From NCBI GenBank assembly GCA_040954595.2, contig CM082588.2, forward strand, positions 8,230,844 through 8,294,843: a DNA stretch of 64,000 nucleotides, read 5' to 3'. This stretch comes from Balanoglossus misakiensis (Eukaryota > Animalia > Hemichordata). A program made the translations under genes and the position numbers. Below, piece by piece: positions 16,802 through 64,000 of the stretch (position 1 is the first letter of the stretch; every line of letters starts with the position of its first letter). Under the pieces are notes generated by a model. That model did no database searches and had not been told where the DNA came from. It saw nothing but the letters and a program-made list of their open reading frames with translations.

Positions 16802-18733
16802 TTATTGCTGATTGCAAAACTGGACCCGTTTCTTTTGTTGAGGGGGCTTTGTTTTCGCTTCCCGTGCCATTTTAGCCCAGGCATACTCCAGACCACACTC
16901 TTCTGCTTTGTTCATGTATTTCAGTGTATTGGCAGAGTCGCCCTTTGCTTGGTAAACTTCGGCAAGACGATAACATGCCCATGATATGAGATATGGGTCA
17001 CGGAGGGTGCTGATCAGATGGGTATATATTTCACATGCATCACTGTACTGTTTCAATAATCTGAGGGCATTGGCCTTCAAGAGAGAAGCATTGGGATACA
17101 AACCACCTGCATATGCAACTGCTTTGTCGAAACACTCTATGGCTTTTAGCAGGCACTGACGATTGCTTTCTATCGGATTGTGTTCGTATTTGGCCACATA
17201 TGTGGCTCCTACGTTCCACGCGAATGATGGATTGTCTGGATCTTGTGCTGCAGCATTGTGAATAACTTGCAGTACTTTCTCTAAGTCTCCAACATTGCTG
17301 TGGCAGTAATGATAACGTGCAGACTCCACCGCGAAATTGGATAAAGGGGTTAATTTGAGTGCTTTCTGGGTGAGTTGACCTGCTTCTTCATAGCGACCTT
17401 CATTGAGTGACAGGTCACTTAAAAGTGCCAAAGCATAGCTGTGATGGGCATTTTTCTTAAGAACCCTCTCAAGCAAATTTCTTTCTTGTGCCATTATTTG
17501 TAAAGCTTCCTGACATTTTGAATCTATACAGACACGATCACGTTTGTACGCAAAAGAGTATGCTTGCCAAAACAGCCAATCTGTTTGTTCTGGAAGTTCT
17601 ACTAAAGCATGATCAAAGCTATCAATTCCCTCATCACACGTTTTTTTGCGAAAATAAACAAGAGAGATACCCTTGTGAGCATATACATACGCTTTCTGTT
17701 TCCCTGACAATTTATCAAGTGACAAAGTTGCTATCAACTTAAGCGTTTCATCAACTCTGTCCATCTCACCCGACATGAAATGAACCCATGCTTTATCTGC
17801 AAGAAGAACCAACTTATCACCAAGTGGACCATCGTCGTCACCATCACAGCTGTCAAGTTCTTTCTGGTTGTCGGTGAGGGCGTCATCAAACCACTTCAAA
17901 GCGGCACTTGGATCTCTCTTGTCTTCCGATCTCAGTTTGGACATGTACAGGTAACCTTTCATAGCTTTATGGGGAACTGGAGAGAACGCCTGGTTGTGAT
18001 ATTTAAGGTCGTTGTCCAAATCCCACTGTAAGCGCTAAGTACATGGACAGACATGTTACAGTGTAATGTGAAAACACAGGTGCTTGTACAGATGCTATGT
18101 TGGTATTTTACTGATTGTAATTAAGGTAGCTAAAAACGATAAGATCTCCCGATTTCACGTCATACGAGCGCTCACACTATGTTCGGGCCTATACCCTACT
18201 GAAACATAAACAGATAAAGAAATCTCTTTATGTGTCAGTGGGGTATAGGCTCGAACTTGTCATATGACGCGAAATCGGGAGATTGTCTAAGCTACTGAGT
18301 TATCATTTATAGCCACCTTCCAATTAATAAAATACCTGTATGTGAAAACATCAGACGCATGATTGGAATGAAATAAGAAGATGTGATTGATGAAGAAAAC
18401 TCTAATGATTGACAAATTTTTAAATATTACACTTTAAATGATGCAAAAAGTGGATATTCAGCATGTTGCTTTTTATATTTCAATTTGCGTCATTATTAAC
18501 ATCTGAGAGGAATACACATTTCCTTGGTTTTCGTGACATTTCAAGAAGTCAGATACAGCTGTTCTGAAACGCTTTAAAATTTCACAAACCTGTACTTCAA
18601 ATGCAAACAAATGTCCTCACCTCAAAACTGTTGTCACAAAATTCTTCGAGTTTCCAGTTAAAGTGGCAGGGAAATCTTTGCAGTATTTCTTCATAGGACT
18701 TTGCTGTATGCTTCAATTCCGTTATGTGTGTAA
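16802..18733 (-). CDS. IFIT-like tetratricopeptide repeat domain (exons 18733-18621 and 18034-16802 of gene A)
   Basis: ILQRFPCHFNWKLEE matches the IFIT N-terminal CHFxW signature; LVLLADKAWVHFMSGE, YVYAHKG and multiple TPR helices follow. Confidence 0.8.
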
Positions 18734-21700
18734 CTGAAAATTCTATTCAATAGTAAAAACAAAGTTTGAGTGATAAACTGATTTCATGATTTTAATTTTA
18801 AATTGAAATTGGTCTATTGAAATGAGCTTTTTTATTGTGGTATCAACATTTTGGGAGAGAGTCGAGTTTGTATCAACCCGTGAATGCAATATATAAGTCA
18901 GCGCAACAACGTAAATTGTCTACCAAAAGAAAATAAACAACCAAAATATCCGGCATCAATATTGAGCGTTTTCGTTCCTTCGGTTTATCGAAGTGACATT
19001 ATTTTGGTAAAATCAAGTGAAATTGACGTAAACTAATAATTTAGTTTTAAAATAAATATGCCGGACCATGTTAAGTATAATCATTTTGCATAGAAGATCA
19101 ATTACAGGAAAAGGGGAAAAAACAAAGTGAAAAGGAAAGGTTTTTAGACCGAACTCTAAAATTCGCCTTTGTTCCTGGACACATGACTGTAATTGAAAAT
19201 AAATTCGGCCTATAATTGAATTTGTTGGGAGCACATTTTATTTATTTGGAGCAGATGATACAACGGATGGATAGATATGTTACAGATAACTGCATTACCT
19301 TCGATGTTCTTGTCTACAGGTGGCACAGTTGCAGTTTTCGTTTGCTGAAGTTCATCGATAGTCTGACGTAACTGTCGGATGCTGTCCTTTAGTTTGATGT
19401 TTTCATCCACGGTCGTACGTAACTCTTGATTTTCCTCTTTCACTTTGATATTTATCATGGTTAGCTTAGAACTTTGGTTTTCACTGCTCTTCAGCATTTC
19501 CTTCAGACGCTGACATGTCTGCTCAGTTTCTTCACTTTTCCCCTTAAGGATAGTATAGTCCGTCTTCCTGGATTGTAGTAGTTCTCGAATCTCCTTGTTT
19601 TCGTTAAAAAGCGAGGTGATGACAGAGAGATAGTTGTCTGTCGAGATTGGTTCCAAGACACGAGCAGCTCCTTCTTTTGAAAAAGATTCCGCCAGAATCT
19701 TGTACGATTCTTTGGTGCCAGTGTTCAAGATGTTGACGCCATTTTGATTGACCAATCTCTTCATTTCTGATGAGAATGTGATTCAACATTGTTATCAAAA
19801 TGTTATTTATTCTCGACATGCAAATCAATGGAAGAATAGTGCGAACCTGTCTCTAAGATCATAATTCCACATGCAAGCAGATAACCCAAAACAATCCATT
19901 TAGAACAATTTTCAGCAGTAAGCTTACTTAATTTAAAACTATTATATTGGCAATTTGTGGGCCTATTTCAGTGAGAAAAATGTCGTAGATCATTTTTTGA
20001 ACGAAAGATGAACATTCTAAATGTAGCTATCAACTACATGTATGTAGTGAACACGACTTTATTAGAGATCTGCAAATGCATTGGTAATCAAGGAGACCAT
20101 GAGTCTTCATCGTTAACATGAGCGTGTTCATTTGTCCAATACAATATTGTTTGGCCAAATTCCCTGCACTACGAGTTTTATGTTGACTTTAAAGGAATGT
20201 TTGTGAACACTGACCTTCTCTATCAAATCTGGATGTCTCTCCCTCTGGTAAGGTGATCGAAGACAGCTGTTGACTATCCAAAATCAAACACCGTCTGATT
20301 CCAAGGACACCAAGAACTTCTGGCCGTTCATCCAACAACGAAGACAGTTGTAGAGGGCGCTGTATTTTTATCAACAGTACGATTGGTGTCTGTGTGTCTC
20401 CCACATCAACATCTATCTCAGCTTCCAAAGTGCCGGAACCACCAAGTAGTTTTGATAAACCGATTCTGTTTTGGCGTGTGGCATAGACAGACCTGTCAGT
20501 CTCTACGGAAACAACTGCGCTCTTGGCATCTACATTCACAAACGACGCAGAGAAAGGCTCAATAAATGATATGCAGTCTCATAAAAGAGTATTTTTCAAC
20601 AGTATTTTTTCTTCTGGTTGAATTCTTAAGTGCTAATGAAAAAATCTTTGAACTCATAGACCGTACGTCAGTTAGAAACAAAAGCAGTCATAGAAACACC
20701 CAACTTGTAAAATAAGTCTTGCCAAATGTAATTACCTTGTTTAGTCAAAATCTTTCCAGGTTCTGTACACTTTTCTCCACACAAACCACAGACCTCAGAA
20801 GATTTCACTTCCGGTACATAGCCTATAATGATTAAAGTTACGAAATCGTCATGACATATATCGTTGAACGCATTGGCAATCTTGACAATAATCCTTAAGA
20901 ACGTGAGTGTACAAATAGAAAGTTTGACAAAGACACATCACAGACACGAGTCTGGAAATGAAATATTAACCAAAGGTTTCAGGTAAAATCCCTCAATTCA
21001 AACGAATACACAATGTTCGGCAACAATAACTACATTGTTAAACTATTAGACTTGCCTTCCTTGATGTACTTCAATTCTGCCAGACATCGTTGATATCTCC
21101 ATGTCTCTATGGTTGTCTTCAGATTAACGTCAGATACATTGAGTTTGTGGAGCAATTCGGGTGTGATCATGTCTGCCTTAAACAGATCTCCCAGTATCCC
21201 TTGCCTGTAGTCACGCCATAGTCTCTCCACTGACTTTGATGTCTGGCATACCAATACAACATTCAGACTGCCCCGCTTGATTTCTTCAATTTGTAAGTTT
21301 CCAACACTGTTGAGATGCTCTTTGACTTTTGGTAAATCGTTTTCAGAGTTGCTGTTGTTGATTATCTCATTTTCGATGAGTTCAACCTGGTCTGGAGTCA
21401 AGGTTGGGCCGGATACCTCCAGGCTAATCTCGATTTTACCTAAAATAACATCACTATATTAGATTCAATGTTTCGGTCTGTTTTCCAAAGTTACTTATTC
21501 AGAATTACTTTTTCGAAATGAAGGTACACAATATACAAAACGTCTGTTCATACAGTTTTAAAGCTTCAATTATTTCAACTTTAATAAGCCCTATCTATTT
21601 CATCTTCTGAAACAATAATATCCATCCCCATGATAGTCCGGCATGCGAAGGTCTTCAGTTATAGAGGAGAACTATTTGATTTCTGGAAAGGGGTGGAGTA

Positions 21701-23630
21701 TGTCACAAGGTTTTTCAGTCACTGTAGGCCTACAACAGTTTTTTTCGATTGTCTGTTTCCCTTTTACTTAAAGTAAAGGCATTGCATAAGCAATTACATT
21801 TCCTCATCATCATCTTCCAACAATTCTTCCTCAAAAAAACCATCCACCCCTAGAAAACAAATGGTTCTCCCCTTATTTGATTAGTTGAAATGACAGTCAA
21901 TTATGCAACAGCCTAGCCTACCCAGCTTAGATTTGAGAGTGTCTTCATGCGTTTGTCCAGCCTCAGGATTTTGTTGGCCACCTTCACCAGTTTTATTCAA
22001 ATCACCACTTTCTGGTCTATTGTTACTGGGGAGATCTTCAACCTGATTTTCTTTTTCGCTTCTACCGGAATTCGAGACTCGTTGTCCTTGGTCACGAACT
22101 GTTTTCTCTTCCCCTATGGACAAATGTGAAAAACTCAATTTACAATCACATTCACACCAATTGCTCAAATGCTTCACATTTAAATTGATTCTGGTAAACC
22201 ATTCAATTGCTTTTGTGTATTAAAATGCATTTTATGCAACGGTAAATCACTGAGAGGCTGTGGCTGTTAATATGTTAATATATTGTCATATTGTCATAAC
22301 TGTGTGTTGTCCAAAGCAACGTATACAGTGCGTGCAACATTCTCTTTATCTATCGCTATTTACCTTTGGAAGGCTCATCTGCAGGGTCATCGCATTCTGT
22401 AGGGCAAAATACACATTCCAACAGCTTGGTGTGATGGTCAGCAATAACACCATTCTCAGCGGATATTTGTAGTGCCGTCTTCAGTTCTTGTGCAGCATTC
22501 TTTGCACGGCCATATTCACTTAGGATATCCATGATAGCGCATACCCACTTTTCTTTTCCGCTGTCAAGACTTTCGCTCGGTCCTACGTCACAAGTTTGTA
22601 CACCAATGGAGGGGAAGTGATCCTTTAGGAATGTTGCCAGACCTGATTGCTCTGGATGTATTGTAGGCACACCAGCAGTGCAGGATAGAAGACCGAATAC
22701 ACCAAATGGGTCTCCTTTAGTTGTGCAATTTATCACGATGTCACACTGCTTCAAATCGTTCTTTAACTGGCTTATCGATGCGTTGTTGGGATACATGTGG
22801 ATATTTAATCGATCGGACATTGTCATCCTCTCTAGCCTCTGTTGACATTCCTCACACGGTTCAGAGGATACATATCCTCTTAACTTCCACTTGATTTGCG
22901 TAGAGAAATACTTGTATATGTCAGCAACTTTCCCCATGCCACGCGCTACTGCTTCAAATTCTTCCAGGTCACGTAGCCCTGTTATGGTATGTACAGATAG
23001 GACATTGATGGTTTTACGTAAACCGGTTTTATTCACGGAAAGATTGCCGACGTCTTTCTTCATGCAGGGAATGTATGCAACGTGCTCCACTTGTGAGTTT
23101 AACAAAGGTTGAATCTTCACCTCAAACTCCTCATATACTGATGGTCCAACGGAGAGACTAACAGAGCACTTTTTCGCATATTCCAGCATTTCATCATCTT
23201 TGGCAGCCAAGTCTGAAGGATCTAGGTTCATGTTTTCCGGTGTGTCAGAATAGACAGGAACAAATTCCGCAGTTGGAAAAACCTCTGCCTGAATACTCTT
23301 TGCTGTACTGGCAGTTCCATCCTTACAAGCAGTACCGTATATGGTCGTAATTGGGTGATATTTCTTTAACTGTTGAAAATAGTGTTCGTGTAAAATTAAC
23401 CAATCACTTGTCGGCTTCCCCTCTTTGGTTGGGAGAATCAGCTCTACTCTATGACACCTTGCTTCTTCAACTTCTTTGTCAGAAGCCTGTAACGCCATGA
23501 AGTAAACCTGGTTGTTTCCATCAGCAAGATCGATGGCCAATTGTCTCTCAGTAAGACATGTTGCAATATTGCGACTTCTCGGCCACCACTCCTCTCCGAC
23601 AACCAACATACGGTTCATCATATGTGCCAT
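16802..23630 (-). CDS. Gene A: GT4-like glycosyltransferase, TRADD-N-like, unknown domain, coiled coil, IFIT-like TPR; ~1352 aa in 8 coding exons
   Basis: Exons 23630-22364, 22113-21922, 21439-21056 (GC donor), 20822-20736, 20529-20215, 19766-19299, 18733-18621, 18034-16802. All have recognisable acceptors and donors; phases 1,1,1,1,1,1,0 sum to 4059 nt with no stop. The first six exons have matching boundaries in gene B. Confidence 0.75.
18121..18320. mobile_element. Degenerate palindromic MITE in the IFIT intron
   Basis: aaggtagctaaaaacgataa / atctcccgatttcacgtcata are mirrored by tatgacgcgaaatcgggagat / ttatcatttatagccacctt. Confidence 0.5.
19299..19766 (-). CDS. Coiled-coil exon of gene A (phase 1-1, 156 codons)
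   Basis: Heptad-rich ENQELRTTVDENIKLKDSIRQLRQTIDELQQ; paralogues at 46313-46780 and 43842-44198. Confidence 0.7.
20215..20529 (-). CDS. Unrecognised 105-aa domain exon of gene A (phase 1-1)
   Basis: Exactly 315 nt with conserved splice positions in all three copies (also 47233-47547 and 45501-45815). Confidence 0.65.
21056..21439 (-). CDS. TRADD-N-like domain exon of gene A
   Basis: IEEIKRGSLNVVLVCQTSKSVERLWRDYRQGILGDLFKADMITPELL fits the GS-strand-LxxLWxxYxxGxL pattern of TRADD-like N-terminal domains. Confidence 0.75.
22364..23630 (-). CDS. GT4 (GT-B fold) glycosyltransferase-like domain of the conflict-system type, gene A
   Basis: MLVVGEEWWP...RQLAIDLA, VSLSVGP, LKNDLKQCDIVI...DPFGVFGLLSCTAGVPTIHPEQSGLATFL, W...I, AQELK follow the layout of animal immune-associated GT4 domains. 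Confidence 0.8.
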
Positions 23631-34257: not shown

Positions 34258-34595
34258 TTAATCTATCTCTGAATATGGCCTTTTTTTCCCACGTCGTTTT
34301 TCTGATTGCAGTTTGTTTACACACTCCTCCACCAATGAGACTAATGCTGGTAGTTCCATGTTTTGAAACAATTCCTTTAGAAGTGTTAAATCGTCATTGC
34401 TGAAATGACCCTTCTCTTTCAAACAGTAAAATATATCTGAGGGAGATTCCAAATCCTGCAATTCTCGTTTTGGTATGAAGTCTTCTCGTAACAGGCCTCT
34501 GAGATCACGCTCATCCTTTCTGTTTAAACGCTTGTCAAGTGTCATGAAAAGGATATTCAGTGGATTTAATTGTGTTGTTTTAAAACACTGTGAGT
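34258..34595 (-). CDS. Death effector domain (DED) terminal exon
   Basis: LNILFMTLDKRLNRKDERDLRGLLREDFIPKRELQDLESPSDIFYCLKEKGHFSNDDLTLLKELFQNMELPALVSLVEE follows the FADD/caspase-8 DED pattern; acceptor cattacag, phase 1. Confidence 0.8.
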
Positions 34596-37500
34596 CTGTA
34601 ATGATAATGTTAGTGTTAATGTTATATCATACAAAGGTAAACATAACAATCAAATTACAGATTTTTCTCAAATCTGATCTAATAGACCATTTTGATATCC
34701 TGGCATATATAGCTTGTATGAGTTTTTTTCCATTGATTAAGGTAGTTGGAAAGGCTAGGGCGTCAGTTAAAATTTCATTTAAAAACACTGAATTTATATC
34801 TAGAAATGTATTAGAGAAAAATTAAACTCATGAAAAATTCGGGGCAATAAACGTGTAACAAGATATGGCTGGTTTTATTATACCTAATTTCATACATCTG
34901 GCAAGGAAGCTAGGGAGCCTTATTTGAGCGCCCTCTAGGAGAAGACTTCTCCTAGGCTATGCGCACAAGGACGGGTTCCCCTAGCCAAGGGCATTTAAAT
35001 GTAACTTGCAAACACTGATTCTTGCAATTTTCAACGATAGATAACCTTGCTTGTTTATTAAAGGCTGCCAAATTATGAACATTTTTGCATTTCTAGGGAA
35101 CCCGAAAAGCCAGCAGAAAAGCGTTTGACCCAGATAAATGCGATCCTTCGCCGTGAACTGCCGCTAAACTTTGCGTATTTCGCTACTTTTCTGCCCTTCG
35201 CCATAATGTAATGGGTTTTATTTGTGATTGAATTGGTATGCCAGATAATTTTTTTATCATGAAACTTTCAGGAAAGGCTCGGGACATCCCAAAGAACAAT
35301 TTTACGGGACAGTTTTTTCTTAAGTTTTCCCGTTGTGTTTTGGCAGCACGTTAAAGTTGTATACAAAATATCAACAAAAACTGTGTTTTCCTGAGTGATA
35401 ACTTTGAAAAAAATAAGTTTATGCTGAAAGTGTCCCGTACATTGCTGGAGGGGTTGCTTAATATTAAAATGAATACAAATTATTCAATAATTTGTGAAAA
35501 CATGTCAAGATTCAATCAATATTTTGTAAAATTATGAATATTTATATTTAGGTGTATCAAATTTCATAATTTTAGCAGATATTTTTACAGTCATATTTTT
35601 CCCTCACTTTTGAGTTTGTTAAGAATACATGCTGCAAATTTCAAGTCATTATCTTTATTCTAACTTGTGAAAATAAATTCACAAACATTGAGAGAATTTG
35701 CTTCAAAAATAGCCTTTCCAACTACCTTAAACTACATAATAGTAGGTTTTAAAATTTCATAATTTAAATTACAGTTAGTTTCATCCCAATTTCAGTGACC
35801 ATAAAAGTTTATCCTGATAGATCTGCAAAACTGTCAAACTGTCAAACCACAATTTAGAGTTGATACATTTTGCAGTAGCATACCATCATGATACTTACCT
35901 CCATTCGAAGAACTGCTACCAACTTGCTTCTCCTAGATGAGAAAAAGAGACACCCAAGTTGTAAATAACAGTGAAAGGGAAAATAATGCAATACGTTTCA
36001 ATTTTCTAAAAACAATTGTGCTTGAAAACTATGCGGTTCTCATTACAGTGATTCCCCATGTCGGCCAAAACTGGCCAATTATACTCAGCCAAGTTGTCGA
36101 CTATTGAGACATTCAGTAGTTGCCTAAACACATTCAATTCCAGATAAAATGCAAGACACTGGATCTCCATGGGCAGGCAATGTACAGATGGGCACTGATA
36201 AAAGCTTAGCAATCATGGGTGAATAAATTGTGACGGGGGTGTGATGTGTGTGTGTGGGGGGGGGGGGGATGTGCACCAAGTGATTACAATGCATTAAAAT
36301 CACCTGGGCAATTGGCCACTGTACTAAGCCAACGACAGGAAAATGCACATACTCATGGTCCACATAAGATACATTGAAATGTGATAAATTGAACCCAAAA
36401 CCTAAATTGAAAATTTTATGACTTGTAAGAATCAGATTACATGCTTTCTCTGCACTCACATCATATAGCACGGACATCTGTTTGTGGTACAACAATATCA
36501 TTTCAATTATTCACAAGCTAATACGTTTAGGTGGGTTCTTACATTTGGCATTGCGAATAACAGCTCAACAGTTGGTGGGTCATCATTTTTCTGAAACAGC
36601 ATACGTCCTTGCAGACCACGACCTCTTTGCCTGTCTTTAACGACAACATCCCAGTGGTTATCACAAAATGGGTAGTATGGTCTCTTGTTCAGCACTGACT
36701 CCAGACCATAATTCCCTTCTGCGGGGACAGTATTTTTGACAACATCTCCGTATTTCAGCTCAATATCAGAACTGTATGTTGTTCTTTTATCAGTGTATTG
36801 TTTATATTTCTCTTCAGTTTGCAATAAATCTGTAATGGATTTTTGTCCTTTGGCCTCCACCAAGTCACATCTTAAGACTGTTGCAGTATCCTTGTGCTCA
36901 AGAAGAAGAATCTTTACAATCTGATTTCCAGACTTCTTGAAGTCTGTGATGGTTGATAGCATGTAACAAATTCGTGGCATGACTTCTTTGATGTATCTTC
37001 CCAACGAATATCTGAAAACAATTCCAGACACTTTCAAGGATTACGAAAATGGTGAAATGCAATCACATGTTCTAGTCTGCTGACCCCACATTTAGAATCA
37101 TAGATTACAGAAGGGGTATGTTATATCACCATTACCTGTGGATACAATAACATCCAATCAAAGGAAGATTGCTTCAGAGCAATATCAACATAGCTGCAGT
37201 CATTACATTGCATTTCCATTTTTACAGAAGAAGACTTCAACCTACCCACTCAGTATCTGAGTGTGAAATTCCACCACATCGCGTTGTACAGTATAAGAAC
37301 AATCCTTGGTAACATCCTTCCAGTCACAATTACCATCTTCATCTTTAAGTATGCACAGTTCTGTATCATCAGATGCAACATGTGGGATGTCTGGTGGCAG
37401 TGGGATGGTTAGTTTTATAGGCTTCTTGAACTTCATTCTTTCCCTCTGGCCTCGATTGATGTACACTATAGATGCGAAGGACACATCGAGAGATTCTCCA

Positions 37501-37794
37501 CCAGTTGGGAAGACACTATCAACTGTGTTATAGCGACAGTCATGGACCTTCAATACGAACAATAAGCCTCATTGAATGTTGTCACTATAGCAGTACATAC
37601 ATGGATACCTGGCTGAATTATCTCCTGTCTAAGAGTTTAACTGCTTATAGCTGCAGCCTGCCATTTTTTTCAACAAAATCAATCAATCAATCAATCAATC
37701 AATCTAGCAACTGATGCAGCTCCACCTTAATCTATTGTCATGTTAATCTCTATGTTGGGTAATAACAGATATGGGTAAATGTTGGTGGTTGTGG

Positions 37795-37828
<34 letters not shown>

Positions 37829-40800
37829 ATTTACCTCTAATATTACAGCCTTTTCATCTTCTACGGCATCTTCTGGAACTTCGATGCTTATCCGTTCGTC
37901 TTTTTTTGAGGTAAATTTTCCACCTTCTTTGCTGATATCAAATGAGTCTTTATAAGGTCTTGATATTGCGATGAAAAGTGAAAAATGGCACACTTCTGCC
38001 TTGATATGATTGTTTTCCTGAATATGAATCAACATTTAATGGAAACACTTTTACTTTTAGTGTGTGGTCAGAAACTTCGTGAACAACTGATTAGCACTTT
38101 TGATTGATGGTGGTATATCTGCTATTTTCTCAGAGACGGTGTTTTGTTTTGCTAAATGGAAGGTCAGTAGGCTGTAATGACTGACAATTTACATGTCCAT
38201 GGATACATACATGCAAATATCCCATACAAATATATATTTACTGAAATGCAATAATGGTAAAGTTATAAGTAGTAAAACTTGACTGTGTAGATCTGTGATA
38301 TATGTACCATACGTACTTCAACAGTTTTCAACTCTTCCCATGTTTCACCATTTTTGCTTGTCAGGATTATCTGTTCTCTCTCAAACGGCTGAACATTTAA
38401 ACACTTCCTCACAAGGTAGACTGGTTTCTTTAGTGTAATGTGATCTGCCTCAATATCAAGGACATCTGACTGATACCATTCAAAGTCTGCAAGAGGGACC
38501 TTGGTGACGTTATGGTTACATGTGACCAATAATGTTGTGTCTTCTTCTACACATGCTGATGGGACTTCGAGTGAAAATCCACATGGTAATTTGTAGGAAC
38601 GTCTTTCCTTTAATGGAAAAGGAAAAAATTATATTACAAAACCAGAAATGGGGCTGGAAATCACCCCCCCCCCTCCCCATTGAATGCTAAACTGTAACTA
38701 AATTCTGTCATAAAACTCGAATGCATTTGCAAGCAAAAGCGAAGTTCCAGAGACCAGATCTATTTTATATAATATTTCAAGGCCTTCAAAAATGAACAGT
38801 TTGAATAGAAAAAGCAATGCATATATGCTAACCTGTCGGGTGCATGCACTGTTGCAAGCTGAAAATAGTACATATCATAGTTTCACAATTTGTAGATGTC
38901 CATTGAAAATTGTTTCAACCCATCTAGAATACTGTTTAAATACAATTTATCAACATAATCAGTACGTGTGGTATGTATTGCAAACAACCTATTCAGAAAG
39001 AATACTTTGTTGTACAAATTCATTAAAATACATCAATTTTACGTCAATCATCATGCCTACCTGATTAGCAGCAATAAGCTGAAGCAATCTTTGGTCTTGC
39101 ATATCCTCTGAAATGCAGATATGTTAGGGTAGTAGTTGTATTTACTAAGATATGATTACTGTTCCTGTTTTAACATAATTCCAGCTTGAAATTGTAAATT
39201 TCTCCGGTTTCAAGTCTGTGAGACTTGCATGGTTTTTTTCACTTGATATGCACTGACCTTCTACATATTTCTGCACGTCATAATACCCTAATTGACTTGT
39301 TATTATTTGTGAATTGATCTGTTGAAGATGCAGAATAAAACATCCACTTTTTGAAATAAACATTTCTGTAGTAATTACTGAGCTCAGAATCCCCTCAAAG
39401 TATATATTTTCAGAAAGATTAGATATAGGGAAACATTTTGGTTATTTCAGTGTGATCATTGTTTACACAACTATCACAATCATAACAGATGGATTAGGTC
39501 GGATTAGAATATATCAATTCACAAAAGTGACAGGAATATACAGGTTCACATCACATCACACCGCATCACATCACACCACATCACATCACATCGCATCGCA
39601 TCGCATCGCATCGCATCACATGTATATAGCACAATTATTTCGCAATGAACGTAAATTACTGGCAAGAAAACCAAAGTGAAACGCAATGTTTTTGATTGAC
39701 TCTGTACTTAATTTTTGCTCATGGACCCCACCGTATACTGTAATAGAAGAACACTCAGTTCCCAGCCTTCGATGGTCAAGTATATTGTCAGAATTGAAGA
39801 TATAGGCAACACCAATCTGATTAAAATCATATGAGAAGATAGGCGCTAGTAGACCATGAGCCAGTAGGGGTTTACCCCCCCCCCCCCCCGGGGGAATTTT
39901 TGAGACAATGTTTTTCTGAAAGCCTATCATATAATGAGTAAAATTCCCTTTGTTTGCCATCTGGGCACCGGGGCGTTTTCGAGTTATTGGCTTCTAAATT
40001 ATATTGGGTAACGTATGTAGAAAAGCCTAAAAGTGCATATAAATTGACGTAGGGGGTAAATTAGTCTTGTAAAATATTGTCTCTCTGAATGTATACCTTG
40101 AACAACAGGGAAGTATTTGGTATCAAAAGAAAGCTTAGTAAACAAGCTTTCCATTAATTACAAAATAAAAGTGATATGACAAATCATGACATCATAGTGA
40201 CGTCATAAGTCAAAATACCCTTACGAAAATGGTGTTCTGTTCACCTATAAATGTGAGGTTTTGCAAAACATGTCTCTGAGCAATTGTACTGTGATGTGTT
40301 TGGTATCAACAGAAAGCTGATTGAGTAAAGTATCTAATTATTGCAAAAAATTGATATAATAATCAATTACGTCATCATTACGTCAAACTTCCAAGTACCC
40401 TTACCAATTAGTGACTATGATGACAAGTTATTACCCTAGGAGATAGGTGCCTTTAAATAAAAAAAATTGGTAAGGAAGGTTTGTGAAGTCCATTCTATGT
40501 AAAAAATAGTGCTGATTCCAAAAAAGGCAGTCTTATTGACCCCACCCAAGACAAAATTGCCATTTTGGCACTTTTTAACCCAAAAAAGGTCATTTTTAGA
40601 ACACACTAAAAACACACTGTTTTCGTCACATTCGAAGATCTGATGACATATGATATGCCTGTTCTATGTAAAATTTGGTTGATATTACGAAAAAAGCAGT
40701 CTGACTGACCCCAAACGAGACAGAATTGCCTTTTTGACCATTTTTTGCACAAAAATGTCATTTTTAGACAAAACTTAAAACACACTCTTCTCTTCATATT

Positions 40801-43800
40801 GATTGATTTGATGATATATGGAAAGTCAATTCTATGTGTAAAATGGTGACTATAAAACATAAAGCAGTCTTTTTGACCCCAATCAATACAAAAATGCCAT
40901 TTTTGGCCACATTTTTGAGGTCAAAAAGGTCATTTTTACAAAAAAAACTAAAAACAAACTGTTTTTTTCATATTCAGAGAACTGATTATGTATGAAAAGT
41001 CCATTCTATGTAAAAAAAAAATCTGATTGACCCCATTCTAGTCAAAATTGCGTTTTTGGCAATTTATTGCCTAAAAAGACCTACTAAAGACAAATTTATC
41101 ATTTTAAACATTTTCTAGAAAAAAAATGTTTGCAACTAAAAATAAATAAAAGTCCATTCTATCTTAAAAGTAGCGATTTTTCCAAAAAAGCACTCTTACA
41201 GACTCCACAGAGGGAAAAATGCCATTTTGGCCACTTTGCTCAAAAAAGGTAACTGTTTGAAACTTCTTTCTTTATTTTCAGAGATCTTATGATGTACGGA
41301 GAAGGTCCAATTTTGTTGAAAGGGAGCCGATTCCCAAAAAATTCTTTTCAGCCCTACAAAATTGTCATTTTGGCCATTTTTGGTCAAAAAGGTCATTTCA
41401 AGAAAAAATGAAAACAAGCTGTTTTCTGCGTATTTAAATGTTTGATTATGAATGGAAAGTCCATTTTTTGCAAAAAATATGCTGATACCAACACAACAGT
41501 CTTATTAAGACCCCACTCAATACAAAATTGCCACTAAGCCATCTTCTAGTCAACAATTGTCTTTTTACGAAAACAACATAATAAATAACCTTCTCCGTAC
41601 ATCATAAGATCTCTGAAAATAAAGAAAGAAGTTTCAAACAGTTACCTTTTTTGAGCAAAGTGGCCAAAATGGCATTTTTTCCCTCTGTGGAGTCAGTAAG
41701 AGTGCTTTTTTGGGAAAAATCACTACTTTTAAGATAGAATGGACTTTTATTTATTTTTAGTTGCAAACATTTTTTTCTCTAGAAAATGTTTAAAATGATT
41801 AATTTGTCTTAACTAGGTCTTTTTAGGCAATAAATTGCCAAAAACGCAATTTTGACTAGAATGGGGTCAATCAGATTTTTTTTTACATAGAATGGACTTT
41901 TCATACATAATCAGATCTCTGAATATGAAGAAAACAGTTTGTTTTTAGTTTTTTTTTGTAAAAATGACCTTTTTGACCTCAAAAATGTGGCCAAAAATGG
42001 CATTTTTGTATTGATTGGGGTCAAAAAGACTGCTTTATGTTTTATAGTCACCATTTTACACATAGAATTGACTTTCCATATATCATCAAATCAATCAATA
42101 TGAAGAGAAGAGTGTGTTTTAAGTTTTGTCTAAAAATGACGTTTTTGGGCAAAAAATGGTCAAAAAGGCAATTCTGTCTCGTTTGGGGTCAGTCAGACTG
42201 CTTTTTTCGTAATATCAACCAAATTTTACATAGATTAGGCATATCATATGTCATCAGATCTTCGAATGTGACGAAAACAATGTGTTTTTAGTGTTTTCTA
42301 AAAATGACCTTTTTTGGGTTAAAAAGTGCCAAAATGGCAATTTTGTCTTAGGTGGGGTCAGTCAGACTGCTTTTTTCGTAATATGAACCAAATTTTACAT
42401 AGAATAGGCATATCATATGTCATCAGATCTTCGAATGTGACGAAAACAGTGTGTTTTTAGTGTTTTCTAAAAATGACCTTTTTTGGGTTAAAAAGTGCCA
42501 AAATGGCAATTTTGTCTTGGGTGGGGTCAGTCAGACTGCTATTTTCGTAATATCAACTAAATTTTACATAGAATAGGCATATCATATGTCATCAGATCTT
42601 CGAATGTGACGAAAACAGTGTGTTTTTAGTTTTTTCTAAAAATGACCTTTTTTGGGTTAAAAAGTGCCAAAATGGCATTTTTGTATTGATTGGGGTCAAA
42701 AAGACTGCTTTATGTTTTATAGTCACCATTTTACACATAGAATTGACTTTCCATATATCATCAAATCAATCAATATGAAGAGAAGAGTGTGTTTTAAGTT
42801 TTGTCTAAAAATGACTTTTTGGGCAAAAAATGGTCAAAAAGGCAATTCTGTCTCGTTTGGGGTCAGTCAGACTGCTTTTTTCGTAATATCAACCAAATTT
42901 TACATAGAATAGGATGTCATCAGATCTTCGAATGTGACGAAAACAGTGTGTTTTAGTGTTTTCTAAAAATGACCTTTTTTGGGTTAAAAAGTGCCAAAAT
43001 GGCAATTTTGTCTTGGGTGGGGTCAATAAGACTGCCTTTTTTGGAATCAGCACCATTTTTTACATAGACTGGACTTCACAAACCTTCCTTACCATTTTTT
43101 TTTATTTAAAGGCACCTATCTCCTAGGGTAATAACTTGTCATCATAGTCACTAATTGGTAAGGGTACTTGGAAGTTTGACGCAATGATGACGTAATTGAT
43201 TATTATATCGATTTTTTGCAATAATTAGATACTTTACTCAATCAGCTTTCTGTTGATACCAAACACATCACAGTACAATTGCTCAGAGACGTGTTTTGCA
43301 AAACCTCACATTTATAGGTGAACAGAACACCATTTTCGTAAGGGTATTTTGACTTATGACGTCACTATGATGTCATGATTTGTCATATCACTTTTATTTT
43401 GTAATTAATGGAAAGCTTGTTTACTAAGCTTTCTTTTGATACCAAATACTTCCCTGTTGTTCAAGGTATACATTCAGAGAGACAATATTTTACAAGACTA
43501 ATTTACCCCTTACGTCAATTTATATGCACTTTTAGGCTTTTCTACATACGTTACCCAATATAATTTAGAAACCAATAACTCGAAAACGCCCCGGTGCCCA
43601 GATGGCAAACAAAGTGAATTTTACTCAGTATATGATAGGCTTTCAGAACAACATTGTCTCGAAAATTCCCCCGGGGGGGGGGGGGGGGGAGATAAACCCC
43701 TACTGGCTCATGGTCTATAGTGATCGTTTTGGCTGTTCTGTTCTCACGGATTTGGCTGTTCTGTTCTCTGCGTAACCAGTCTTGGCTATTCTCGGGTGTA

Positions 43801-46800
43801 CGAGCCATTCGAACAGAACAGCCAACCCTAGATGTACATACCTTCGATATTTCTAACTTTGGGTTCATCTTTTAGTTCGACATTTGTCATTGTTAGTTTT
43901 GAACTTTGGTTTTCACTGCTTTCCAGCATTTCTTTCGGATGCTGACATGTCTGCTCAGTTTCTTCACTTTTCCCCTTAAGGGTCGTATATTCGATCGTCT
44001 TGGATTGTAGTAGTTCTCTAATCTCCTTGATTTCGTTAAAGAGCGAAGTGATGACAGAGAGATAGTTGTCTGTCGAGATTGGTTCCAAAACACGAGCAGC
44101 TTCTTCTTTTGAAAAAGACTCTGCCAGAATCTTGTCCGATTCTTTGGTGCCAGTGTTCAAGATGTTGACGCCATTTTGATTGACCAATCTCTTCATTTCT
44201 GATGAGAATGTGATTCAACATTGTTATCAAAATGTTATTTATTCTCGACATGCAAATCAATGGGAGAATAGTGCAAACCTGTCTCTAAGATCATAATTCC
44301 ATATGCAAGCAGATTACCCAAAACAATCCATTTAGAACAATTTTCAGCAGTAAGCTTACTTAATTCACGGTTACTAGAAGAAGACGGTTAGGAAACTCTA
44401 TTGTTCGGAAGGTGTGAACGAGGTGTTAGCTAGGAGAGTACATGTCCAAACCGCTATGTGGGGTTGTATTGGGGAACGTAGCTAATTTTTGAACCCCTTC
44501 ATCTGCCCTTTTTCGTCAGAGTACAGCGCCACTTTTTTTGTACGAGTTCCATGTAGGCTTATGGAGTGCACGGTCATAGTCTGTTGGGCTTGCGACACTC
44601 TACCATTGTTTCTTGGGTGGTTAACTTAAAATCCAGATTCAAATAGCGTCGAATTTTGAACCCCTAGAATTCAACCCTGATGGTCGCATTTCTGTTTTTT
44701 TTTTTTTAAATATATTTAGATATTTTACACCTTTTTGTATTGCATGGGCTATTTCGTTTATTCCAATTGGAATATTTCGTTGAGATTGCATACCCATTTC
44801 GATACAGTCGTTAACATTATCGATATAGCCTTTGGCGGCCATCTTGTTTGTTTTGGTTCGCATCGAATCTCTAGGGCACAGTCAAGACAAAGAATGTATG
44901 GCTTCATCATGTCCTTGAAAGTTCAAAATTGTCATAAATGTGCTGTGACTTTATAAATTATCCACTCTCTGTTCTGTTTTCCTCAAATCTGGTGGTATAC
45001 GTACTGTGCGTGCAATCAATTCCGTAAACATGAGTATGGTTTGCTTTGGATTGTAGGGGTAATGACGTCATTTTGACCGAGCGGTCAGTTATTCTGTCTG
45101 TTTATTCGTATGGCCAGGCTCGTTAGCACCTGATATCTTTCGTTTACACTAAGTGTTTACCGAGGCGAACATCTAACAATGGAGAAAAAATAGTTTCCTA
45201 ACCGTCTTCTTCTAGTAACCGTGCTTAATTTAAAACAATTTGTGGGCCTATTTCAGTGAGAAAAATATCGTAGATCATTTTTTGAACGGAAGGTAAAAAA
45301 TTCTAAATTTAGCTACCAACTACATGTATGTAGTGAACACGGCTTTATTGGAGCTCTGTACATACATTGGTAATAAAGGAGTCCAGGAGTCTTCATCGTT
45401 AACATGAGCGTGTTCATTTGTCCAATACAATATTGTTTGGCCAAATTCCCTGCACTATGAGTTTTATGTTGACTTTAAAGGAATGTTTGTGAACACTGAC
45501 CTTCTCTATCAAATCTGAACGTCTCTCCCTCAGGTAAGGTGATTGAAGACAACTGTTGACTATCCAAAATCAAACACCGTCTGATTCCAAGGACACCAAG
45601 AACTTCTGGCCGTTCATCCAACAACGTAGACAGCTGAAGAGGGCGCTGTATTTTTATCAACAGTACGATTGGTGTATGTGTGTCTCCCACATCAACATCT
45701 ATCACAGCTTCCAAAGTGCCGGAACCACCAAGTAGTTTTGATAAACCGATTCTGTTTTGGCGTGTGGCATAGACATGTCGATCAACCTCCAAGGCAACCA
45801 TTGCACCATTGTCATCTGCAGGCATAACATTGTATAAAGATCGATAATAGGCAAAATATCTGGAATTGTATGTATTCTCATTAAAATGAGCAAATGTTTT
45901 ACTTAATAGTGCGGGAGTATACTTTTTATGGAAACATTTCAAACAAATTTATTATCAGCTATAAGCATAAGAAACCTTTGAGTGATTTTGGTGTTTCGGT
46001 TTATTGAAGCGACATTCCCTTGGGAAAATCAGTTCAAAGTGATGCAAACTAATAATTTAGTTTTAAAATAAATATGCCGGACCATGTTAAGTATAATCAT
46101 TTAGCATGGAATGTCAATTGACGGAAAGAAAAACAAAGCGAAACATAAGTTTTTTAGATCGAACTCTGATATTCGCTTTTGCATCTGAACCCAACAAGTC
46201 TGTAATAGTAAATAAATCCGGTCTATAATCAAAGTTGTCAGGAGTACATTTTGTTTCATTTGGAGCAGATGATATAACGGATGCATGGATATGTTGCAGA
46301 TAACTGCATTACCTTCGATGTTTTTGTCTACAGGTGGCGCAGTTGCAGTTTTCGTTTCCTGAAGTTCATCGATAGTCTGACGTAACTGTCGGATTGTGTC
46401 CTTTAGTTTGATGTTTTCATCCATGGTCGTACGTAACTCTTGATTTTCCTCTTTTACTTTGATATTTATCATGGTTAGTTTTGAACTTTGGTTTTCACTG
46501 CTCTCCAGCAATTCCTCCAGACGCTGACATGTCTGCTCAGTTTCTTCACTTTTCCCCTTAAGGATAGTATATTCCGTCTTCCTGGATTGTAGTAGTTCTC
46601 GAATCTCCTTGTGTTCGTTAAAGAGCGAAGTGATGACAGAGAGATAGTTGTCTGTCGAGATTGGTTCCAAAACACGAGCAGCTCCTTCTTTTGAAAAAGA
46701 TTCCGCCAGAATCTTGTCCGATTCTTTGGTGCCAGTGTTCAAGATGTTGACGCCACTTTGATTGATAAGCCGCTTCAGTTCTAATGAAAATAGTAACATG

Positions 46801-49800
46801 TGATTCAACATTGTTATCAAAATGTTATTTATTCTCGACATGCAAATCAATGGGAGAATAGTGCGAACCTGTCTCTAAGATCATAATTCCATATGCAAGC
46901 AGATTACCCCAAACAATCCATCTAGAACAATTATCAGCAGTAAGCTTACTTAATTTAAAACTATTATGTTGGCAATTGGTGGGCCTATTTCAGTGAGAAA
47001 AATGTCGTGGATCATTTTTTGAACGGAAGGTAAAAAATTCTAAATTTAGCTACCAACTACATGTATGTAGTGAACACGGTTTTATTGGAGCTCTGTAAAT
47101 ACATTGGTAATCAAGGAGTCCAGGAGTCTTCATCGTTAGCATGAGCGTGTTCATTCGTCCAATAAAGTATTGTTTGGCCAACTTCTCTGCGCTACGATTT
47201 TTCTGTTTAATGTTATGTTGGTGAATACTAACCTTCTCTATCATATCTGCATGTCTCTCCCTCTGGTAAGGTGATCGAAGACAACTGTTGGCTATCAAAA
47301 ATCAAACACCGTCTGATTCCAAGGACACCGAGAACTTCTGGCCGTTCATCCAACAACGAAGACAACTGTAGAGGGCGCTGTATTCTTATCAACAGTACGA
47401 TTGGTGTCTGTGTGTCTCCCACATCAACATCTATCTCAGCTTCCAAATTGCCGGAACCACCAAGTAGTTTTGATAAACCGATTCTGTTTTGGCGTGTGGC
47501 ATAGACAGACCTGTCAGTCTCCACGGCAACAACTGCGCTCTTGTCATCTACATTCGCAAACGACACAGAGAAAGGCTCAATAAAGGATATGCATTCTCAT
47601 AAAAGAGTATTTTTCAACAGTATTTTTTCTTCTGGTTGAATCTTTAAGTGCCTATGAAAAAAAACCTATAAACTCATAGCCTGTCAGCTAGAAACAAAAG
47701 CAGTCATAAAAAAACTCAACTTGAAGAATAAGTCTTGTTCTATGCTGCCATCCATAAATAGTAATTACCTTGTTTAGTCAACATCTCTCCAAGTTCTGTA
47801 CTTTTTTCTCCACACAAACCACAGACCTCAGAAGATTTCACTTCCGGTACATAGCCTATAATAATTAAAGTTACGAAATCGTCATGACATATATCGTTGA
47901 ACGCATTTGCAATGTTAACATTGATCCATAAGAACGTGGGCGTACAAGTGAAAAGTTTGACAAGGTGTCAGTCAGTGCAAAGCATTCACATGAAATACAC
48001 ATGAAATCACTTTGAAATGGGTATGAATACAAGAACTTGAAAGTACACGTATTCTGCTGAAAAACACACACAACAAAGAAACGAGTCTGCAATTGAAAAT
48101 AACCAAATGTTTCAGGTAAACTCCTTTAATTCAAACGAATACACAATGTTCGGCAACATTAACTACATTGTTAAACTATTAGACTTGCCTTCCTTGATGT
48201 ACCTGAATTCTGCCAGACATCTTTGATATTTCCATGTCTCTATGGTTGTCTTCAGGTTAACGTCAGACACATTCAGTTTGTGGAGCAATTCGGGTGTGAT
48301 CGTGTCTGCCTTAAACAGATCTCCCAGTATCCCTTGCCTGTAGTCACGCCATAGTCTCTCCACTGACTTTGATGTCTGGCAAGTCAATACAACATTTTCA
48401 CTACCCCGCTTGATTTCTTCAATTTGTATGTTTCCCACACTGTTGAGATGCTCTTTGACTTTTGGTAAATCGGTTTCAGAGCTGATGTTGTTGATTATTT
48501 CATTTTCGATGAGTTCAACCTGGTGTGGAGTCAAGGTTGGACCGGATACCTTAAGCTTGACTACGATTTCTCCTGAAATAACAATATATTGGATCTAAGT
48601 CAGCCGAACATAAACATAGTCAGTGTTCAGGTCTCTTTTCCGGAACAACATTTCGAAACGCCCTATGCCTACGCGCAGAACGCAAACTGGTAATCTGGGC
48701 GTATGTGTCTCTTCCCATAGGATTACATTGAAAATGGCTAGAAAACTCTATTCTACTATTGTCATTTTCATGATTTTTTTTTCACATAGCTAAGTCAAGT
48801 AAAAATAAATTCATTTGTCAAATAAAATCGTATTGTCACCGCACTGTTTTGAGATAAATTTATTAAATATTTTCCCATAGACAAACTATTTGTGAAAAAA
48901 ATGCTGAGTCAGCAGTTTTCTTCTATTATCGACTATATTCATGGCTCTGTATTTCAAAACCAAGCACGGTGACCCCTACATTTTATTACAGATTTTCATT
49001 ATACATACAAAGGAGAATCCAAAAATCCAAAATTAAAAGAAATGACTATACTTTAAATTTTACTGATCGTACATTGGTACCAATTTTAGAGTTGTTTGTA
49101 AAAGTCATATCAAGAAATTCATCTTCATAATAAGGACCAGGAATATGGAGGGGACGTATAGTCATGTTACCCAGATTCGAGTTGTCAGTGTGTTGAACTT
49201 CATGTGTCTGTCCACTGTCAGGATTTTGCTGTCCGCCTCCACCAGTATTCGGATCACTACTTTCGGACCCGTTGTTGCTAGGGACATCTTGGACTTGCTT
49301 TTCGGTTTGGCTGCTCCCGGAATTCAAAGCTTGTTGTCCTTTGTAATGAAATGTTTTCTCTTCCCCTAGTGACAGGTGTGAAATTAGTACTAGAATTTAC
49401 CATTACCCTTCAATTTAAACTATCGATACATAAACACTTCAACATAAAACTTTACTAGCTTTTGTGAATTGAAATGCTGTTTAACACTACGTTGCAACGG
49501 TTAATCTTTGAGTGGCAAAATATGTCTAATATGGCGATTTACTATGTTTCGTTAAAAGGATCGAATAATATTTCTATAAAAACATATACTTAATCGTCTC
49601 TTTTATGTATCACCACTTACCTTTGGAATGCTCTTCAGCAGGGTCATCACATTCTGTAGGACAACGTACACTTTTCAAAAGCTTCTGGTGGTGGTCAGCA
49701 ATAACACCATTCTCAGCAGATAATTGCAGTGCCGTCTTCAGTTCTTGTGCCGCAGTCTTTGCACGGTCATAATCACTTATGATACCATTGACAGCACGTG

Positions 49801-50890
49801 CCCACTTTTCACTTCCGCTCTTAACATTTTCGTTTGGTCCCACGTCACAGTATGGTACACCGAGTGAGGGGAAGTGTTCTTTTGTGAAGTTTGCAAGACC
49901 TGATTGCCTTGGCTGTACAGTGGGCACACCAGCAGCACAGGATAGAAGACCAATCACACTAAATGGGTCGCCTTTAGTAGTGAAGTTTACCAGGATGTCA
50001 CACTGCCTCAAGTCTTTCTTTAACTGGTTTATTGGTGTGTCGTTTGGGTATAGATTGACAATTAACTGATCTGACTCAGCCATCGTCTCTAGCTTCTGCT
50101 TACACGTTTTATATTGTGCAGGATCTGACGCTATAAATCCTTTGAACTTCCACTTTATGTCTATGGGAATATAACTGTAAGCGTAAGCAAGTTTCCCCAT
50201 GCCTCGAGCTGCTGCTTCGAATTCCTCCAGATCCTGTAGGTCTGATATCGTGTGCACAGATAAGACTTCAACAGTCTTTAAGTCTCTTTTGTTGAGCGAA
50301 ATCTCGTCTACATCTTTCTCCATCCAAGGAATGTACAGAACATTCTCCACTTGCGAGTCTAGCAAAACTCGAATCTTCATCTTCAACTCCTCATGTACTG
50401 TTGGTCCAACAGATATAATGACAGAGGACGTCTCTGCATACTCCAGCATTTCATCATCTTTGGCAGCCAAGTCTGAAGGATCGAGGTTCATGTTTTCCGG
50501 TGTGTCAGTATAGACAGGAACAAAGTCCGCAGATGGGAAAACCTCTGCTTGAATACTCTTTGCTGTACTGGCAGTTCCATCCTTACAAGCAGTACCATAT
50601 ACGGTCGTAATTGGGTGATATTTCTTTAACTGTTGAAAATAGTGTTCGTGTAAAATTAACCAATCACTTGTCGGCTTCCCGTCTTTGATTGGGAGAATCA
50701 GCTCCACTCCATGACGCCTTGCTTCTTCAACTTCTTTGTCAGAAGCCTGTAACGCCATGAAGTAAACCTGGTTGTTTCCACCAGCAAGATCGATGGCCAA
50801 TTGTCTCTCAGTAAGACATGTTGCAATATTGCGACTTCTCGGCCACCACTCCTCTCCGACAACCAACAAACGATTCTTCACCTTTGCCAT
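34258..50890 (-). CDS. Gene B: GT4-like, TRADD-N-like, (unknown domain + coiled coil)x2, ZU5, ZU5, UPA-like, DED; ~1684 aa in 15 coding exons
   Basis: Exons 50890-49621, 49365-49171, 48572-48189 (GC donor), 47855-47769, 47547-47233, 46780-46313, 45815-45501, 44198-43842, 39107-39061, 38607-38317, 38017-37835, 37547-37246, 37011-36543, 35932-35899, 34595-34258. Total 5055 nt with all phases compatible. The 43842/39107 junction is inferred. Confidence 0.6.
34741..35726. mobile_element. Non-autonomous Kolobok-like DNA transposon (TTAA TSD)
   Basis: ttaa|ggtagttggaaaggct ... agcctttccaactacc|ttaa. Confidence 0.8.
36543..38607 (-). CDS. PIDD1-like ZU5-ZU5-UPA module (4 exons)
   Basis: YKLPCGFSLEVPSAC...QSDVLDIE...LKKPV...TWEELKT / AEVCHFSLFIAISRP...GGKFTSKKDERISIEVPEDAV / KFKKPIKLTIPLPP...WKDVT / PFCDNHWDVVV. 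Confidence 0.8.
39548..39620. repeat. (CACAT)n/(CGCAT)n microsatellite
   Basis: Directly visible pentamer array. Confidence 0.9.
39850..43717. mobile_element. Foldback element, ~3.9 kb, with very long inverted arms and ~128-bp internal subrepeats
   Basis: Ends tagaccatgagccagtagggg / cccctactggctcatggtcta, flanked by TAG on both sides. 39850-~41310 mirrors ~41590-43717; the right arm has extra subrepeat copies; no ORF of note. Confidence 0.85.
44366..45223. mobile_element. Non-autonomous DNA transposon, 32-bp TIRs, 7-bp TSD (P-element-like)
   Basis: TIR cacggttactagaagaagacggttaggaaact; TSD cttaatt on both sides; empty sites at ~19927 and ~46949. Confidence 0.85.
48189..48572 (-). CDS. TRADD-N-like domain exon of gene B
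   Basis: IEEIKRGSENVVLTCQTSKSVERLWRDYRQGILGDLFKAD; 384 nt as in gene A. Confidence 0.75.
49621..50890 (-). CDS. GT4-like glycosyltransferase domain, gene B
   Basis: Paralogue of 22364-23630; LKKDLRQCDILV...DPFSVIGLLSCAAGVPTV; donor AAG|gtaagt. Confidence 0.8.
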
Positions 50891-63989: not shown

Positions 63990-64000
63990 ATGGTATGTTA

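Follow-up and report, generated by a model that had tools for sequence, protein, structure and literature searches.

The acorn worm Balanoglossus misakiensis carries a gene whose predicted product joins an IFIT-homologous C-terminal cassette to an invertebrate immune protein of a known kind. The gene, here called copy C, lies on the minus strand at 23630-16802 of a stretch of 64,000 nucleotides (nt) of contig CM082588.2 (assembly GCA_040954595.2, positions 8,230,844 to 8,294,843), the whole of which is referred to as the window and supplies all coordinates given below. Joining its eight predicted exons by coordinates (Table 1) yields 4059 nt and 1352 amino acids (aa) with no internal stop, in the order GT4-conflict domain, TRADD-N-like domain, CxxC pair, ACT/RRM-like module, coiled coil and IFIT-type TPR domain; all six introns before exon 7 are in phase 1 and the last one is in phase 0. 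By homology and predicted fold the tail is a true IFIT homolog, and it is not a canonical IFIT, because the RNA tunnel and the gene layout both fail. Vertebrate IFIT genes are described as stand-alone, with an ATG mini-exon and one large exon (Liu 2013, PMC3688568; papers are cited here and below for their accessible parts), unlike copy C with its eight coding exons, an intron within the IFIT domain and no ATG mini-exon found. Splicing is predicted, and we consider the fusion of GT4, TRADD-N-like domain, module, coil and IFIT domain very probable.

The original prediction, made from the sequence alone, had placed an IFIT signature, PCHFNWKL, in a 113-nt exon (18733-18621) that is entered through a phase-1 acceptor, is in frame on both sides and has no in-frame ATG before the signature, and had taken this exon as part of the C-terminal module of a large multidomain protein. 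Coordinates, phases and frame are confirmed. The exon, exon 7 of our model, is bounded by an AG acceptor and a GTGAG donor. It is reached in phase 1 from the coiled-coil exon 6 (donor GTAATG) and continues in phase 0 to the TPR exon 8 at 18034; its reading frame meets a stop shortly before the acceptor, and beyond the acceptor no in-frame Met occurs until residue 967, 40 residues past the CHF motif at residue 927. The 565-nt intron 6 was scanned for the short ATG exon that the prediction had named as the opposing outcome, and no ATG with a strong phase-1 donor was found in it, a result with which a non-coding first exon is still compatible. The donor at 21056, after the TRADD-N-like exon, is of the GC type (GCAAGT), and so is the one at 48189 in the neighbouring paralog B. 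A scan for GAAA-NN-GAAA, a simple proxy for the interferon-stimulated response element, gave 15 sites in the window and none in 23700-28200, the transcription start not being placed.

The predicted multidomain order recurs in other acorn worms. When candidates of similar length were searched with the TPR exon, one protein in 7998 matched, and among longer candidates two in 7990 did; a full scan, over 1.84 billion representatives, yielded 157 matches, six of them at E 1e-30 or better. The top match, Glandiceps talaboti XP_077977119.1 (1613 aa), is complete, with GT4, the middle modules and a full IFIT-type tail; two Ptychodera flava RefSeq models have the domain order of copy C and end prematurely inside the IFIT tail, and P. 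flava XP_070559281.1 (757 aa) has module, coil and a complete IFIT tail without GT4. The copy C model aligns lengthwise with three RefSeq models of two other acorn worms at 31-37% identity, the residues at the exon 6/7 boundary are conserved in the Glandiceps and Ptychodera models, including an I-E dipeptide at the junction, and the TRADD-N-like exon 3 is about 42% identical to the Ptychodera models. Twenty TPR-exon matches were sorted by taxon (14 hemichordate, three fish or ray and three without an organism name); the best matches are hemichordate, in agreement with the invertebrate host that had been assumed. Such RefSeq models can be chimeric, because the one numbered P0002 runs into the following GT4 gene. 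A further profile search, with 32 matches among 7988 candidates, contributed nothing beyond generic TPR proteins.

That the tail is an IFIT rather than a generic TPR fold, as had been claimed, is borne out by profile and fold comparisons. The CHFxW motif that follows the first helix in exon 7 aligns with the N-termini of IFIT1 and IFIT5. A profile of 21 sequences, with no named vertebrates among them, aligned with IFIT1/IFIT5 in a single stretch that covers the entire domain (E 3e-71), its best natural non-IFIT match being OGT (E 1e-36, several stretches); one engineered consensus TPR outscored IFIT1/IFIT5 in this profile. A profile built from the fused proteins alone matched seven PDB chains, six of which are IFITs, and the ten rows of an Atlas search with the tail were all IFIT-named chordate clusters, at 0.96-0.97. 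The tail model predicted from a 32-row alignment, with a predicted local distance difference test (pLDDT) score of 91, reached template-modelling (TM) scores of 0.71-0.78 with IFIT1/5 vs at most 0.51 for non-IFIT rows, and Z of 29.9-31.0 vs 21.4 for the best other TPR, covering IFIT5 residues 33-427; eight of the 32 rows are vertebrate IFITs, which may bias the model toward the IFIT fold. Two other results are superseded: exon 8 alone found no IFIT among 16 matches to PDB sequences, where the alignment-based tests now stand, and a single-sequence fold (pLDDT 58) was no closer to IFITs (TM 0.31-0.37) than to other TPRs. Copy C shares with vertebrate IFIT1/IFIT5 (PDB 5w5h, 5udi, 4hor, 3zgq) the CHFxW motif, profile homology over the full length and the predicted fold, and differs from them in that the domain is the C-terminal module of a larger protein, is interrupted by an intron and lacks the last TPR of IFIT5 and the RNA-contact residues.

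In a FastTree analysis of 25 sequences the copy C domain and five relatives form one clade (support 1.0), nested inside the stand-alone hemichordate IFIT-like proteins when rooted on four fish or ray IFITs, in a set without TTC22 or any other non-IFIT outgroup. The tree omits P0003 and P0016 (short), P0009, P0018 and P0155 (subsets or isoforms), P0153 (internally repeated) and P0156-P0158 and P0160 (near duplicates). Beyond the fused clade, the cassette is most closely related to stand-alone proteins such as XP_077997910.1, XP_070570675.1 and XP_006812281.1 (23-33% identity), in which, unlike in copy C, the IFIT domain is N-terminal and is followed by about 300 residues. Those extra C-terminal residues have no Pfam match in P0007, P0012, P0013, P0015, P0020 and P0154; two of these proteins have N-x-x/R-H-K-H-like motifs near the end, which we take to recall HEPN nucleases, and the stand-alone proteins may themselves combine an RNA sensor with an effector. 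Two partial Saccoglossus IFIT-like models start at the column where exon 8 starts, which suggests a shared intron. Many acorn-worm proteins carry automatic IFIT-like names in RefSeq.

Seven RNA contacts of IFIT5 (K150, R186, R253, K257, R260, Q288 and R294; list from PMC13197388 and PMC9677429) were located by eye in the profile alignment, and each sequence was then scored. Mutation of K150, R186 or R253 strongly weakens RNA binding by IFIT5 (PMC9677429, Table 5). The IFIT domain of copy C retains none of the seven, and its three near-complete mates in the fused clade retain one each (0, 1, 1 and 1 for the four near-complete members), against one to five in ten stand-alone hemichordate proteins (mean 3.5) and three to six in four fish proteins; most of the stand-alone proteins, unlike copy C, keep residues of the R186, R260, Q288 and R294 type. 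The positions of T37 and Q41 are Asp in copy C, and a structural alignment confirms the register at IFIT5 residue 33. Moreover, the second half of the IFIT domain diverges much faster than the first in the fused clade, where mean identity is 0.46 and 0.43 along the N-terminal half and 0.25 and 0.27 along the tunnel-closing half, the fall being flatter in the stand-alone proteins (0.38, 0.35, 0.33 and 0.29); subdomain I of copy C is 58% identical to the Glandiceps protein. Some points weigh on the other side. The register around IFIT5 250-260 is ambiguous by two residues and one register gives an Arg at 254, neither of them restoring R253, K257 or R260; low contact scores are also found outside the fused clade (one of seven in P0007, three of seven in Conger); net charge does not discriminate, being -10 in copy C, Conger and P0007 alike; and the contrast between groups is not an independent test, because the sequences are related. 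To judge from these residues, the domain is probably not an RNA sensor of the IFIT5 type. The viral-RNA sensor of the original prediction is thus not upheld, and the comparison with IFIT1/IFIT5 structures that it had proposed returned the IFIT fold, the residues of a basic RNA tunnel being absent in the profile alignment.

The N-terminal domain scores far above the Pfam cut-off for GT4-conflict (117 bits vs 26); against the PDB, the GT4 exon gave chance matches only. Both Glu residues of the E-x7-E motif bind the nucleotide-sugar donor in GT4 enzymes (PMC8760489). The motif is intact in three of three bacterial relatives, whereas copy C has D-x7-L and all five hemichordate sequences have D-x7-L/M, with Asp at the first position and the second Glu lost; this replacement makes an inactive or altered enzyme likely. 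Against this stand the report that one motif Glu is dispensable in some GT4 enzymes (PMC8760489) and two Arg of copy C that fall near the pyrophosphate Arg/Lys columns in a MAFFT alignment, in a loop that aligns poorly and without conservation in homologs. Exon 3 is likely a TRADD-N domain, with a Gly-Ser pair resembling the uS motif of Kaur 2021 (PMC8195603); its score is a point to the contrary, since it lies under the Pfam cut-off (PF20694, E 0.006 and 0.004 in two copies). Of the partners that had been proposed for the IFIT domain, GT4 is therefore secure and the signalling adaptor likely, while a GT4 effector is not supported, the second Glu being lost. The exon 5 module has no Pfam match, and the Atlas model of a homolog resembles ACT/RRM domains weakly, with TM scores (by query) of 0.38-0.43, none of which reaches the threshold for naming a fold; the module likely has an ACT/RRM-like fold, the class to which Kaur 2021 assigns TRADD-N, and is possibly a second, divergent TRADD-N-type domain.

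Copy C belongs to a tandem array with three copies (A, B and C) within the window, and in paralog B a different cassette is predicted at the same phase-1 donor. The model of paralog B (ATG at 50890) has 15 exons and 1684 aa, no internal stops, AG acceptors and GT or GC donors, and its module and coil exons are duplicated, as in the Glandiceps protein. From its last phase-1 donor (43842) the reading frame continues, past a foldback element, into seven tail exons ending in a DED (E 5.6e-11), which is preceded by an exon (37547-37246) with matches to ankyrin chains (E 1e-4). For this tail the names ZU5 and UPA are assumed from the order of the domains, and an H-F-S tripeptide in the first ZU5-like part is presumably like the PIDD1 autoproteolysis motif. 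No IFIT exon was detected by tblastn or blastn between 43842 and 23630, downstream of the B chassis. If the model holds, different modules can occupy the position behind the coiled coil; it could also be the case that the ZU5/DED tail is a separate gene whose 5' end was displaced. The ratio of nonsynonymous to synonymous substitution (dN/dS) between B and C is 0.36-0.48 in four of five chassis exons, which indicates purifying selection on the chassis, and 1.09 in the 84-nt exon. For the IFIT exon of copies A and C it is about 0.94 over 250 codons, a value that cannot separate decay from diversifying selection, because the pair includes the frameshifted copy A. The ZU5/DED tail predicted in the slot of paralog B had been missed by the original prediction, as had the fact that architectures with GT4, TRADD-N and TPRs were already catalogued.

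An IFIT domain without the RNA-grip residues of IFIT5, and another module predicted in the same slot of the paralog, make an exchangeable recognition or bait module likely. Our preferred reading, to which we give an even chance, is that the rapidly evolving IFIT domain serves to recognise or bait a protein ligand, while the chassis relays the signal and GT4 is non-catalytic. Copy C would then encode a cytosolic protein of immune signalling, whose constant chassis, made up of a likely inactive GT4, a likely TRADD-N adaptor, the ACT-like module and the coiled coil, carries a swappable C-terminal cassette, here an IFIT-derived TPR domain that would recognise a protein ligand or act as bait instead of binding 5'-triphosphate RNA. 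The cassette may have originated through the capture, at a phase-1 intron, of an acorn-worm gene for a stand-alone IFIT, after which the tunnel-lining half of the domain would have changed rapidly. The trigger would be the binding of a pathogen protein, such as an IFIT antagonist, or of an attacked host IFIT; it would alter the state of the coiled coil and TRADD-N and lead to clustering and to the recruitment of signalling or death adaptors, with GT4 as a scaffold or binder and not as the catalytic output. A more specific version, in which an IFIT that no longer binds RNA is a bait for viral IFIT antagonists and signals when the protein assembles, by way of the coil common to both, with the adjacent ZU5/DED paralog, is put forward only tentatively.

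Such an integrated decoy or paired receptor in an animal would resemble a plant strategy. The nucleotide-binding leucine-rich-repeat receptors (NLRs) of plants include integrated decoy domains and paired sensor and executor genes. By analogy, copy C has a defence-target domain on a signalling chassis, the apparent loss of the original activity and an adjacent partner gene; unlike plant NLRs it is without the NLR ATPase, and both the pairing and the bait are proposals here. Our literature search returned nothing linking plant-type integrated decoys to IFIT.

The preferred reading draws on features present in the sequence itself (the order and phases of the exons, a cassette homologous to IFIT, missing RNA-contact and donor-binding residues and a paralog with the same chassis). 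It is weakened by the fact that a protein-ligand or bait role is argued from absent residues, and that the splicing of copies B and C, and with it the ZU5/DED tail, comes from predicted gene models. Moreover, three of the four GT4-clade RefSeq models (P0001, P0002 and P0003) stop short within the IFIT domain, and a frameshift breaks copy A, so that decay fits too.

The alternative that survives best, which we nevertheless hold to be unlikely, is an RNA sensor whose IFIT domain would hold non-self RNA ends in a reshaped pocket and turn on an active GT4, by which viral or host targets would be glycosylated. The predicted model retains the three-subdomain fold of IFIT1/5, the first GT4 motif position is Asp in all five hemichordate sequences, and the accessible part of Kaur 2021 has TRADD-N fused to RLR, KH, RRM and HEPN domains and proposes a GT4 effector; on the other hand, the missing contacts include the positions of K150, R186 and R253, whose importance is documented (PMC9677429), Asp occupies the Q41 and T37 positions, and the second Glu of GT4 is gone. 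It is also conceivable, with a rather low probability, that the polarity is reversed, so that sensing, of a glycan or a sugar metabolite, would fall to the constant GT4 pseudo-enzyme and the output to the variable C-terminal cassette, which would be a protein binder derived from IFIT in copy C and a death module in paralog B. The DED-bearing tail of paralog B and a Bcl-2 domain in the same slot of a Saccoglossus GT4+TRADD-N protein would suit this, as would the term predicted effectors that Kaur 2021 applies to variable C-terminal domains; the slot, however, also carries leucine-rich, ankyrin and TPR repeats, which are typical recognition modules, it is in the concave half that the IFIT cassette changes most rapidly, and no GT4 ligand is known. 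Decay of a non-functional IFIT cassette, as a by-product of tandem duplication in a cluster with fast birth and death, appears quite improbable: the truncated homolog models, the broken copy A, the A/C dN/dS and the lost last TPR would agree with it, but exon 8 is open over 410 codons, the tail folds confidently in prediction, subdomain I stays close to that of Glandiceps, the fusion is kept in two acorn-worm genera and the dN/dS value, as said, is uninformative on this point. Least probable is a separate or shorter transcript for the IFIT exons, from its own promoter or from the ATG near the start of exon 6, with the long fusion as a gene-model artefact, since in spite of that ATG, of the short RefSeq models P0001 (beginning within the coil) and P0005 (with another N-terminus) and of the chimeric models that P0002 makes possible, exon order and junction are the same in models of two other species, neither an in-frame ATG nor an ATG mini-exon precedes the motif, and the exon 6 ATG is Leu in paralog B.

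The chassis belongs to a described family. Kaur 2021 reports GT4+TRADD-N proteins of the DEDD2 clade in cnidarians, amphioxus and hemichordates, in a family with constant TRADD-N regions and variable flanks. At least eight rows of its supplement combine GT4, TRADD-N and TPRs, all from amphioxus; its accessible text names the TPRs as TTC28-like, with no occurrence of IFIT, and none of the 24 Saccoglossus rows among those listed has a TPR tail. A Saccoglossus TRADD-N row that ends in '1B-like' in its table turned out to be a MAP1B-like name and not an IFIT. Copy C resembles these proteins in having GT4 ahead of a TRADD-N-like domain, a variable C-terminal module and a lineage-specific expansion in hemichordates, and differs from them in its IFIT-type TPR, the extra ACT-like module and coil, and the degenerate GT4 motif. 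Proteins with GT4, TRADD-N and TPRs are thus known, at least from amphioxus, and the IFIT cassette was not found in print, our literature search, with most subscription journals outside its coverage, having returned no description of an invertebrate IFIT fusion. IFIT is regarded as a young family (bioRxiv 693333), and Liu 2013 confines IFITs to jawed vertebrates and judges the acorn-worm candidates not to be IFITs.

The surroundings of the array include the following (see also Table 1). The foldback element of paralog B is about 3.9 kb long; its arms of 737 nt are 98% complementary, and it contains repeats of 169 nt. A short acidic, lysine-rich open frame without a Pfam match occurs in two copies on the minus strand (13175-13666 and 56661-57185), each downstream of an IFIT exon copy and part of the tandem unit. 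Broken frames between copies B and C (30048-32077, plus strand) resemble by eye a reverse transcriptase remnant of a long interspersed nuclear element, and a long tandem-repeat array (60103-64000) lies directly upstream of copy A, where the small exon and the chassis would be expected.

Table 1. Features of the window, with position, strand and the evidence for each
Feature	Position	Strand	Evidence
Copy C exon 1, ATG at 23630; GT4-conflict glycosyltransferase-fold, aa 1-422	22364..23630	-	PF20706 E 1.1e-33, 117 bits (cut-off 26)
Copy C exon 2, low-complexity linker, phase 1-1	21922..22113	-	Splice sites, frame; paralog exon 47% identical
Copy C exon 3, TRADD-N-like, phase 1-1, GC donor	21056..21439	-	PF20694 E 0.006, 16.8 bits, under cut-off 23.7
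Copy C exon 4, 29 aa with CxxC pair	20736..20822	-	Pair conserved in three GT4-bearing homologs
Copy C exon 5, unnamed alpha/beta module, likely ACT/RRM-like	20215..20529	-	Homologous to P0006 aa 11-91, E 1e-10
Copy C exon 6, short helices and coiled coil, phase-1 donor for C-terminal cassette	19299..19766	-	Coiled-coil-type Pfam matches under cut-off
Copy C exon 7, IFIT first helix and CHFxW motif	18621..18733	-	Profile alignment with IFIT1/IFIT5 N-terminus
Copy C exon 8, remaining IFIT-fold TPR domain, then stop	16802..18034	-	Equivalent to IFIT5 residues 33-427
Partial tandem duplicate of exon 8 3' end, past the stop codon	16501..16788	-	Self-BLAST 77% nt; tblastn 63% aa
Paralog B chassis: GT4, linker, TRADD-N-like, CxxC, module, coil and second module/coil exon pair	43842..50890	-	80% aa identity, aa 1-904
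Predicted paralog B C-terminus, seven exons, likely ZU5-ZU5-UPA-DED tail	34258..39107	-	In 15-exon gene model
Copy A of IFIT TPR exon, frameshifted; upstream exons not in window	58837..60041	-	90% nt identity, 1-nt deletion
Foldback element (long inverted repeats), in predicted intron between B chassis and ZU5/DED tail	39850..43717	.	737-nt arms, 98% complementary
MEKK4 N-terminal exon, ordinary neighbour	399-2471	-	
FkbM-type methyltransferase, ordinary neighbour	5125-6015	-	
Trypsin-like protease, ordinary neighbour	8421-9578	+	

The origin of IFITs has been placed in jawed vertebrates together with interferon, and acorn-worm candidates rejected, in the accessible part of the sole paper that we found on the question (PMC3688568). 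Our results point to an expanded set of full-length IFIT homologs in acorn worms, one lineage of which came to be joined to a signalling chassis of the TRADD-N type. Copies B and C, neighbours that share a chassis and are predicted to differ in their tails, amount to a natural domain-swap experiment on which end of such proteins senses and which acts, ends that Kaur 2021, as far as its accessible part goes, could only predict. The stand-alone acorn-worm IFITs, with more of the RNA pocket, allow a direct test of whether the recognition of non-self RNA ends by IFITs predates interferon. Finally, if the bait or paired-receptor reading of copy C is true, IFITs would have been viral targets long before interferon.

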